From Thermoproteota archaeon (GTDB lineage: Archaea > Korarchaeota > Korarchaeia > Korarchaeales > Korarchaeaceae), in contig JAOZFH010000020.1 in the NCBI GenBank assembly GCA_027491415.1, positions 1-40,147 of the forward strand: DNA of 40,147 nt. The letters run 5' to 3'. The notes under the pieces are model-generated. The model saw only the letters and a program-made list of their open reading frames with translations, was not told the DNA's origin and searched no databases. Within the stretch, counting starts at the first letter, position 1. Each line of letters opens with the position of its first letter. This document shows, piece after piece, positions 28,744-29,485 of this stretch. The position numbers were made by a program, and so were the translations under genes.

Positions 28744-28875
28744 GTGGAGGTGTCCGGGTACACTCCCCCCGCCATGCTGAACCTGACCGGGACCGGGGAT
28801 CAGGGGGTCGCCGCGGCCGTGGTCGTCGTCATAGGAATCCTCCTCATCTGGCTGGCCATCGACCTGACCCCGTGA
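28744..28875 (+). CDS. RiPP precursor peptide A1 (43 aa)
   Basis: MEVSGYTPPAMLNLTGTGDQGVAAAVVVVIGILLIWLAIDLTP; AGGTGG RBS; an alternative in-frame TTG lies at 28723. Confidence 0.85.
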   Translation: MEVSGYTPPAMLNLTGTGDQGVAAAVVVVIGILLIWLAIDLTP

Positions 28876-28895
28876 GCCAAGCGAGGTGAGGGGAC

Positions 28896-29018
28896 TTGAG
28901 GACCTACACTCCACCAGCGCTGCTGAGCCTCTCTGGAGCGGTGGATCAGGGCGCGGTGGCGGCTGCCGTGGCCGTCATAGCGGCGGTGGCCCTGTGGCTC
29001 TGGCTCTGGGTCTACTGA
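28896..29018 (+). CDS. RiPP precursor peptide A2 (40 aa)
   Basis: MRTYTPPALLSLSGAVDQGAVAAAVAVIAAVALWLWLWVY; GAGGTGA RBS, TTG start. Confidence 0.88.
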   Translation: MRTYTPPALLSLSGAVDQGAVAAAVAVIAAVALWLWLWVY

Positions 29019-29044
29019 TGACGCGTACACCGGGGTGAAGTCCA

Positions 29045-29173
29045 GTGAGGGCCTACTCGCCTCCGACGATGCTGAACATAACGACCTCCGCGAACGTGGG
29101 CCTCGTGACGCCCACCGTGGCGGTGATCATCCAGGCGCTGGTGTGGGTCTACGTCTGGGTCTGGGCGACCTGA
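29045..29173 (+). CDS. RiPP precursor peptide A3 (42 aa)
   Basis: MRAYSPPTMLNITTSANVGLVTPTVAVIIQALVWVYVWVWAT; GGGGTGA RBS, GTG start. Confidence 0.88.
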   Translation: MRAYSPPTMLNITTSANVGLVTPTVAVIIQALVWVYVWVWAT

Positions 29174-29188
29174 GGGAGGCTCAAACGC

Positions 29189-29332
29189 ATGGAGCGCCGC
29201 GCATACGCACCTCCCGCCATGCTCAACGCGATGTCCGACGGACGGGACCTTGGAGCAGTCATTCTCATGCCCATCCTCATAGCGATAGTGATCATCTGGG
29301 TGCTCGGGCAGGACTGGGGGGAGACCTCCTGA
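29189..29332 (+). CDS. RiPP precursor peptide A4 (47 aa)
   Basis: MERRAYAPPAMLNAMSDGRDLGAVILMPILIAIVIIWVLGQDWGETS; GGAGG RBS. Confidence 0.88.
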   Translation: MERRAYAPPAMLNAMSDGRDLGAVILMPILIAIVIIWVLGQDWGETS

Positions 29333-29355
29333 GCCCTGCCTGGGAGGTGAGGTGG

Positions 29356-29485
29356 GTGGAGAGGAAGTACGTCCCTCCGGCCCTCATGTCCATTAATGGA
29401 GGAGAAGGCGAAGACGGTCGTGATAGTGGCCCTGCTGGTCTGGCTCTGGGTCAAGGTCTTCGACCCCAAGGCGGCGGGAGTCTGA
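29356..29485 (+). pseudogene. RiPP precursor peptide A5, split by one extra base (real or assembly error)
   Basis: MERKYVPPALMSI, then one extra base at ATTAATG (about 29395), then MEEKAKTVVIVALLVWLWVKVFDPKAAGV*; GAGGTGAGG RBS. Confidence 0.75.

Follow-up and report, generated by a model that had tools for sequence, protein, structure and literature searches.

The 40,147-nucleotide contig JAOZFH010000020.1 of the archaeal assembly GCA_027491415.1 (hereafter the window, meaning the whole stretch at this length) carries at positions 28744-29485 a tandem cassette of very short genes on the plus strand. Their products open with a leader of the form Y-x-P-P-x-(M/L)-(L/M) and run on into a strongly hydrophobic segment. 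Downstream on the same strand follow, in this order, genes for a radical S-adenosylmethionine (rSAM) enzyme with a fused recognition domain, a GNAT acetyltransferase, a second radical SAM enzyme (rSAM2), a stand-alone PqqD-type protein, and a TldD-like and a TldE-like protein. The cassette probably encodes precursors of a new and rare radical-SAM family of peptides that are made on the ribosome and modified after translation (RiPPs) in an archaeon, whose maturation would depend on a RiPP recognition element (RRE).

An earlier note on this DNA had described five paralogous precursor genes, each with its own ribosome-binding site. Five leaders do lie at this place, and they read in gene order YTPPAML, YTPPALL, YSPPTML, YAPPAML and YVPPALM, just as the note had aligned them; four of the genes are intact, but the fifth is split over two frames. 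In all five, the motif stands three to five codons past a GTG, TTG or ATG start, the N-termini of peptides 1-5 being M-E-V-S-G-YTPPAML, M-R-T-YTPPALL, M-R-A-YSPPTML, M-E-R-R-A-YAPPAML and M-E-R-K-YVPPALM. A purine-rich, Shine-Dalgarno (SD)-like site resembling GGAGGTGA is found 5-9 nt 5' of each of the five starts, in line with the claim of separate ribosome-binding sites, and the intergenic gaps within the cassette measure 15-26 nt.

Peptide 1 (28744..28875, 43 residues) begins with the GTG at 28744 behind an AGGTG site at 28734-28738 and reads MEVSGYTPPAMLNLTGTGDQG followed by VAAAVVVVIGILLIWLAIDLTP. Its start is supported by the orthologues P0027, P0035 and P0028 from other assemblies, which keep both leader and core and begin five residues before the Tyr. 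Peptide 2 (28896..29018, 40 residues, TTG start at 28896) follows the site GAGGTGA at 28883-28889, reads MRTYTPPALLSLSGAVDQG and then AVAAAVAVIAAVALWLWLWVY, and is the database entry P0026. Peptide 3 (29045..29173, 42 residues, GTG start at 29045; site GGGGTGA at 29032-29038) is composed of MRAYSPPTMLNITTSANVG and LVTPTVAVIIQALVWVYVWVWAT and has an orthologue, P0029, in another organism, in which leader and core are likewise kept; the same 1194-bp longest contig is listed for it as for P0027. Peptide 4 (29189..29332, 47 residues), which is the database entry P0023, starts with the ATG at 29189 after the site GAGGGAGG at 29172-29179 and consists of MERRAYAPPAMLNAMSDGRDLG and AVILMPILIAIVIIWVLGQDWGETS.

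The leader part of peptide 5 (29356..29418) has a GTG start at 29356 and its own SD-like site, GGAGGTGA, at 29343-29350, and it ends in its own frame with ...GGEGEDG. From its start, this frame reads MERKYVPPALMSINGGEGEDG (...ALMSINGGEGEDG) and then continues, non-hydrophobic, to 29610, into the next gene. The hydrophobic core part (29420..29485) lies in the +1 frame, where it reads VIVALLVWLWVKVFDPKAAGV up to a stop at 29485; the open reading frame (ORF) that contains it spans 29396-29485, and no SD-like site precedes the ATG at 29396 that opens it. The family profile matches this +1 frame with E = 0.009. The distance from the Tyr to EDG is 16 residues, as it is for DLG in peptide 4, from which we infer a single-base frame change near 29419 as the simplest reading.

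The peptides consist of a leader of about 20 residues, with the conserved element Tyr-x-x-Pro-x-(Met/Leu)-(Leu/Met), and a core of 21-25 residues. The cores are free of Cys and rich in Ala, Val and Ile, often contain W-x-W-x-W, and close with a few polar residues; their mean Kyte-Doolittle hydropathy is 1.6-2.5. Alternating Trp residues appear as W-L-W-L-W in peptide 2, as W-V-Y-V-W-V-W in peptide 3 and as W-A-W-V-W in the peptide of a metagenome locus, L100, described below. Pairwise identity among the four intact paralogues (six pairs) amounts to 37-63% for the leaders and to 18-38% for the cores. The cores had been called hypervariable, a description that does not hold, as all of them, including those from other organisms, share Ile-x5-Trp. 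In the eight aligned sequences, the leader Tyr, the second Pro and a Leu, together with the Ile-x5-Trp of the core, are invariant, and neither these eight peptides nor the more distant P0036 contain any Cys. The junctions DQG, DQG, NVG and DLG precede the cores of peptides 1-4 as previously reported, and EDG takes this place in the broken peptide 5. Peptides 1-4 have no acidic residue in the first 15 positions of the core, and a VY end, as in the mycofactocin precursor, is found in peptide 2 alone. None of the peptides has a match among Pfam or NCBIfam models, and no description of the family was found in the library of papers searched.

A search with P0002, one of the relatives of rSAM2 (a family of nine database clusters at 34-47% identity), led to five near-identical metagenome loci, L097-L101. 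Their gene order is an orthologue of the first rSAM enzyme with its SPASM domain (45-46% identity), a peptide gene, an orthologue of rSAM2 (47%), a PqqD homologue and a second rSAM2 paralogue (46%). The peptide gene has 46-48 codons, encodes the motif Y-S-A-P-G-M-L and lies directly upstream of the rSAM2 orthologue. The check by which the RRE-dependent reading could have failed, namely lack of the motif next to orthologous rSAM genes, was run, and the motif was found there. In L100, the peptide reads MSKYSAPGMLAAGGAESESETLVAVAIGIIAVWAWVWMMTLEEQVSKE, with a GGAGGTGA site before its start. The PqqD homologue of this locus occupies the frame 11056-11343 and is 34% identical to the stand-alone PqqD of the window (E 9e-21); a 105-residue ORF at L100:11052-11369 was considered as the RRE of that locus and rejected as lying in the wrong frame.

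Two other features of L100 deserve mention. Divergently upstream, on the minus strand at 1615-6101, are genes for a 201-residue PqqD-domain protein, an NTP_transf_5 nucleotidyltransferase, a weakly HPr-kinase-like protein and a family-2 glycosyltransferase. We take this set to resemble lasso-peptide tailoring genes, and it might target the same YxxPxL-type leader. The second rSAM2 paralogue is followed directly by an integrase/transposase gene with an rve core domain (12986-13912, minus strand), which may have truncated that cluster.

Profile searches of protein collections holding billions of proteins returned about eight further peptides. Apart from the orthologues named above, they include P0033 and P0034, which are of the L099 type, and P0036, a 56-residue hypothetical protein (E 0.012) whose source names a Corynebacterium sp. 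metagenome-assembled genome (MAG) and which contains YTPPAMLNLT and AIGIAAVWAWVA. The peptide 1 orthologue P0028 (68 residues) leaves the family sequence after ...VVVVIGI and continues with a charged tail; either the assembly has a frame change there, or the C-terminus differs. A 768-residue protein, P0030, has six T-W-T-P-P-A-L-L-N-S...T-D-x-G repeats that match the leader part with E 4e-6; it was set aside as an unrelated chance look-alike.

That the cassette frames are chance openings in GC-rich DNA has a vanishingly small probability, even though all of them fall below the usual gene-calling cut-offs and spurious ORFs are common in such DNA. The loose motif Y.PP.[LMIVF][LMIVF] occurs five times within the 742-nt stretch, against 34 matches in the rest of the 1.78-Mb genome, all six frames counted; with an expectation of lambda 0.007 for an interval of this length, P is ~1e-13. 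The stricter family motif Y..P.[LM][LM], for which there are 69 background matches, gives P ~5e-12. The codons of the Pro-Pro pair differ between the paralogues (CCC CCC, CCA CCA, CCT CCG, CCT CCC and CCT CCG) while the residues are kept, as predicted under selection at the protein level. Likewise, the peptide genes of L100 and L099 are distinguished by five synonymous changes in the leader linker and by a 6-nt in-frame indel, and their core is unchanged. With SD sites before the starts and orthologues in other assemblies, the chance reading is already refuted by conservation.

Outside these loci, the family is sparse. As a negative control, peptides were found in none of 80 loci around more distant rSAM enzymes (at most 37% identity, among the matches listed) and in none of 11 loci from relatives. 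The peptide profile gave no match in the 401 genomes of a class sample around an Actinomycetes MAG, nor in the 401 genomes of a first archaeal phylum sample; the one match among the 401 genomes of a second archaeal phylum sample was read as a spurious membrane segment inside a 266-residue frame. Viral contigs yielded two pattern matches, neither of them confirmed, a tblastn search of plasmids with P0036 yielded no match, and the best score in the ESM Atlas was 0.80, under the lead level of 0.9. Judged by these comparisons, the peptide family is real, conserved and very rare.

The cluster around the cassette contains the domains PF05402 and PF04055 twice each, along with SPASM, GNAT and TldD/E domains. 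The RRE context proposed in the earlier note is borne out by the two PF05402 domains, one fused to the first rSAM enzyme and the other forming a stand-alone protein of 114 residues. The N-terminal piece of the first rSAM enzyme (29505..30581) comprises a PqqD-type RRE at residues 37-90 (PF05402, 2e-09) and the radical SAM core (PF04055, 1e-30), ends with a TGA stop at 30579-30581, and aligns at 45% identity with residues 5-221 of the L100 orthologue, which is intact and has 360 residues. The SPASM domain (30611..30934; PF13186, 3.5e-11) follows in the -1 frame and is 46% identical to residues 241-352 of the same orthologue. The frame break lies between about 30520 and 30579, with the five-G run at 30567-30571 as a candidate site. 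Next come the GNAT acetyltransferase (30942..31478, about 178 residues), rSAM2 (31475..32560, 361 residues, one CxxxCxxC cluster motif), the stand-alone PqqD-type RRE (32538..32882; PF05402, 2.7e-11) and the TldD-like metalloprotease (32879..34267, 462 residues, HELLQH motif). For the TldE/PmbA-like partner (34467..35606), the first ATG, GTG or TTG is at 34467, although the frame is open from 34089; a weak PmbA_TldD_1st match spans position 34467, and a AAGGGAGAG site is present at 34281-34289, in the open frame before it. The C-terminal PmbA_TldD domain PF19289 is found in both the TldD- and the TldE-like protein (2e-34 and 1.1e-11). The NCBIfam TldD equivalogs score below their cut-off (55 vs 513), so the TldD/E proteins of the window are divergent members. 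Directly upstream of the cassette, at 25142..28665 on the plus strand, lie two pairs of ABC-2 type ATPase and permease genes, a candidate system for export or self-protection.

Among solved structures, the closest relatives of rSAM2 are RiPP maturases: by sequence SkfB (E 1e-32) and PqqE (1e-25), and by fold SkfB, SuiB, BlsE and PqqE, the latter comparison resting on an AlphaFold2 model with a mean pLDDT of 84. The rSAM2 family combines CxxxCxxC with one further, near-invariant Cys (9 of 10 sequences), and it lacks conserved C-terminal cysteines that could hold an auxiliary cluster. Among solved structures, the stand-alone RRE comes nearest to the PqqD of pyrroloquinoline quinone (PQQ) synthesis (E 6e-4). 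A complex prediction for the stand-alone PqqD with the peptide alignment reached 0.24 against a mark of 0.32; run without controls, it is used neither for nor against binding.

YxxPxL is the conserved leader motif of lasso peptides, at positions -17 to -12, according to PMC10368454, in agreement with the earlier note. The cassette resembles lasso leaders and their B1 RRE in having Tyr-x-x-Pro-x-Leu/Met near the N-terminus and PqqD-family RREs in the cluster; in lasso leaders, a motif of this form is bound by PqqD-type RREs. However, the partner enzymes here are radical SAM proteins, and the core lacks a ring-forming acidic residue. In grouping a PqqD-type chaperone and a radical SAM enzyme with a small peptide, the cluster recalls PqqA/PqqD/PqqE and MftA/MftB/MftC. 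In contrast to PQQ and mycofactocin clusters, no PqqB/C or MftD/E/F was seen among the cluster ORFs, the cores are long, hydrophobic and several per cluster, and rSAM2 lacks the cysteines of an auxiliary cluster. SkfB, the closest solved relative of rSAM2 by both sequence and fold, is a sactisynthase, but unlike sactipeptides and ranthipeptides the cassette peptides have no Cys as thioether donor, and SkfB-type thioether formation is therefore excluded.

The rSAM epimerases PoyD and YydG/EpeE offer another parallel, since rSAM2 appears to be a single-cluster enzyme with an extra Cys and the cores are rich in Val, Ile and Ala, as are epimerase substrates. With respect to proteusins and epipeptides, the peptides show no nitrile-hydratase-like or Nif11 leader in Pfam and NCBIfam searches, and on the enzyme side, where YydG alone was compared with rSAM2, the similarity is generic only (E 5e-7). 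According to PMC8326336, proteusin epimerases carry the radical SAM cluster only, and sactisynthases and epimerases both abstract the C-alpha hydrogen, the quenching cysteine being in the peptide in one case and in the enzyme in the other. These two points make epimerization an attractive guess for rSAM2, though no more than a guess. A cross-link between Trp and an aliphatic residue, of the StrB/SuiB kind and formed by the invariant Ile and Trp, is an alternative of equal weight.

The proteolytic genes have their counterpart in microcin B17 and klebsazolicin, with which the cluster shares a TldD-like HExxxH protease and a TldE-like partner; unlike there, TldD/E lies inside the cluster here, and no YcaO or azole-forming genes were seen. 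In PMC10885120, TldD/E is described as trimming leaders processively, without sequence specificity, until a modification blocks it, and as often being encoded outside RiPP clusters.

Within the RRE-dependent reading, the steps can be arranged as follows, and we infer this whole sequence of events. The stand-alone PqqD, the RRE fused to the first rSAM enzyme, or both would hold the leader. The rSAM/SPASM enzyme and the single-cluster, SkfB-like rSAM enzyme would act on unactivated C-H positions of the core, with C-alpha epimerization and/or a cross-link of the invariant Trp with an aliphatic residue as candidate reactions. TldD/E would then trim the leader from the N-terminus until halted by a modified residue, and the GNAT enzyme would cap the newly made amino end. 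The ABC-2 transporters would export the product, which would be a membrane-active hydrophobic peptide, or protect the producer from it.

A more specific and improbable form of this proposal holds that the products are ribosomal D/L channel peptides like gramicidin or the polytheonamides, acetylated by the GNAT enzyme after TldD/E has removed the leader. Gramicidin A and the polytheonamides are membrane channel peptides with alternating D and L residues. The cassette would share with them an aliphatic N-terminal part of the core, alternating Trp near the C-terminal end and a possible N-capping GNAT. The SkfB-like enzyme, which in this view no longer has the auxiliary cluster but retains one extra cysteine, would epimerize alternate residues of the Ala/Val/Ile/Trp core, and acetylation would imitate the N-terminal block through which such peptides can join head to head in the membrane. 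Gramicidin, in contrast, is non-ribosomal, and polytheonamide is made with a long proteusin leader and other enzymes. If true, beta-helical D/L channel peptides would be reached by a second and independent ribosomal route, the first one in Archaea.

Several observations weigh against the assignment of the cassette to an RRE-dependent radical-SAM RiPP family. No TldD/E, GNAT or ABC genes were seen in the 10-kb flanks of the L100 cluster, which leaves the peptide, the rSAM/SPASM enzyme, the single-cluster rSAM enzyme and PqqD as the conserved kernel. A profile search of the phylum, which has only 43 species genomes in the collection used, found the peptides in none of the other 42, and the best rSAM2 match in 40 relatives searched, 30 of them in the phylum, is only 39% identical, so these 40 relatives are without a close rSAM2 orthologue. 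The (D/N)xG junction is not kept in the L099 and L100 peptides; given this and the processive trimming by TldD/E (PMC10885120), the specific cleavage after Gly that had been proposed is unsupported. The NCBIfam matches of both rSAM enzymes to curated maturase families are far below the cut-offs (for rSAM2, the best is the mycofactocin enzyme TIGR03962 with 135.9 bits vs 265; PqqE, TIGR02109, gives 112.3 and 91.1 bits vs 381), and thus no known chemistry is transferable to either. The rSAM/SPASM gene is frame-split, as is peptide 5, and the N-terminal 59 codons of TldE are without a canonical start. In appearance, the cores are ordinary membrane helices with a single span, in which the conserved Ile and Trp could serve membrane packing instead of being modification sites.

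In one rival reading, the peptides would be unprocessed, small single-span membrane proteins, such as accessory or regulatory subunits of the ABC-2 system or membrane anchors, with the conserved N-terminal motif serving targeting or protein contact. The length of the hydrophobic cores (21-25 residues), their hydropathy, the Trp cluster with polar residues at one end and the ABC-2 permeases directly upstream all fit this explanation. We nevertheless consider it unlikely, as the L100 peptide has radical SAM genes on both sides and a PqqD homologue alongside, and the 10 kb around it showed no ABC genes. It would also leave the two RRE domains of the cluster without a role, and five diverged paralogues with the leader better conserved than the core are the pattern of RiPP precursors. 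Lasso precursors, another reading that starts from the leader, are hardly credible here, despite a YxxPxL form in all five window leaders (Y-x-x-P-x-M/L) and in L099 and L100, and despite a PqqD-type RRE with a weak match to the lasso PqqD model NF033530 (25.9 bits vs a cut-off of 70). The B2 transglutaminase-like protease PF13471 has no match in the 96%-complete genome, and the contig encodes no Asn-synthetase-like cyclase, the only PF00733 matches (22 and 20 bits) being on contigs C36 and C34; hence, the cluster is not a lasso system. Moreover, the cores lack an acidic residue at positions 7-9, and there would be no Thr at -2 if cleavage followed the Gly. A further proposal, compatible with an RRE-dependent RiPP family, concerns present function: the cluster in this genome would be a decaying relic, which we regard as possible though somewhat doubtful. 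The frame breaks inside the rSAM/SPASM gene and peptide 5 and the missing canonical start of TldE before 34467 speak for decay. Long housekeeping genes are intact, for example those for two class-I tRNA synthetases with open frames of 1011 and 785 residues, which makes rampant assembly indels unlikely. Conversely, four precursors and the remaining enzymes have intact genes with good SD sites, one of the breaks falls on or close to a run of G, where sequencing errors are typical, and an enzyme in two pieces is conceivable, since the SPASM piece comes with an ATG of its own and a AGGGAGGA site upstream. Part of the cluster may be inactive in this genome, unless the breaks are assembly errors.

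As an RRE-dependent RiPP family, the cassette is of interest because a precursor family without a Pfam or NCBIfam model combines a lasso-type leader motif with radical SAM enzymes and not with a lasso cyclase. This pairing would show that recognition of Tyr-x-x-Pro-x-Leu by PqqD-type domains is reused between RiPP classes. Cores that are free of Cys, aliphatic and Trp-bearing point to chemistry on unactivated carbons and to a membrane-active product. With about a dozen sequences in billions, and seemingly present in both an archaeon and a Corynebacterium assembly, the family offers a compact and testable system. Archaeal radical-SAM RiPP clusters are widely predicted; according to PMC12144867, which names only two haloarchaeal lanthipeptides, their functional characterization is limited.

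With 63 contigs and 1.78 Mb, the genome is a MAG of 96% completeness, and the tetranucleotide profile of the contig fits the bin (r 0.991, compared with a mean of 0.993 for 23 contigs). Ribosomal protein S28e is encoded, in a search that was positive only in four archaeal controls, and L27 was not found in the genome by a search positive in ten bacterial controls; together, these results identify the genome as archaeal. Neither archaeal nor bacterial signal recognition particle RNA models matched in the genome, and Rfam gave no match over the whole window.

Upstream of peptide 1, within the region's only AT-rich stretch, a perfect 18-bp palindrome, TTGTAGTAGCTACTACAA, occupies 28675..28692, and TTGTA is present once more 3 nt downstream of it. 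The palindrome is a possible operator or regulator site, and the AT-rich stretch adjoining it at 28693-28714 is a candidate archaeal promoter. A scan for promoters and terminators returned none of either; its consensus is bacterial, which makes the scan uninformative in an archaeon.

About 800 nt downstream of the TldE-like gene, where the GC content falls to 0.59-0.62, a CRISPR array at 36440-37140 contains nine full copies and one degenerate copy of the 37-nt repeat CTTTCAACCCTGCCGCAAGAAGCGGCCAATCTGCTTC, spaced 74-77 nt apart. The adjoining ORF at 37580-38530 on the minus strand encodes a putative CRISPR-associated domain (TIGR02619, 2.9e-25, above the cut-off). At the other side of the window, within 9620-13708 on the minus strand, are an 848-residue molybdopterin oxidoreductase, whose best NCBIfam match is to the thiosulfate reductase PhsA at a score below the cut-off, and, after it, an NrfD-like membrane subunit of 447 residues.

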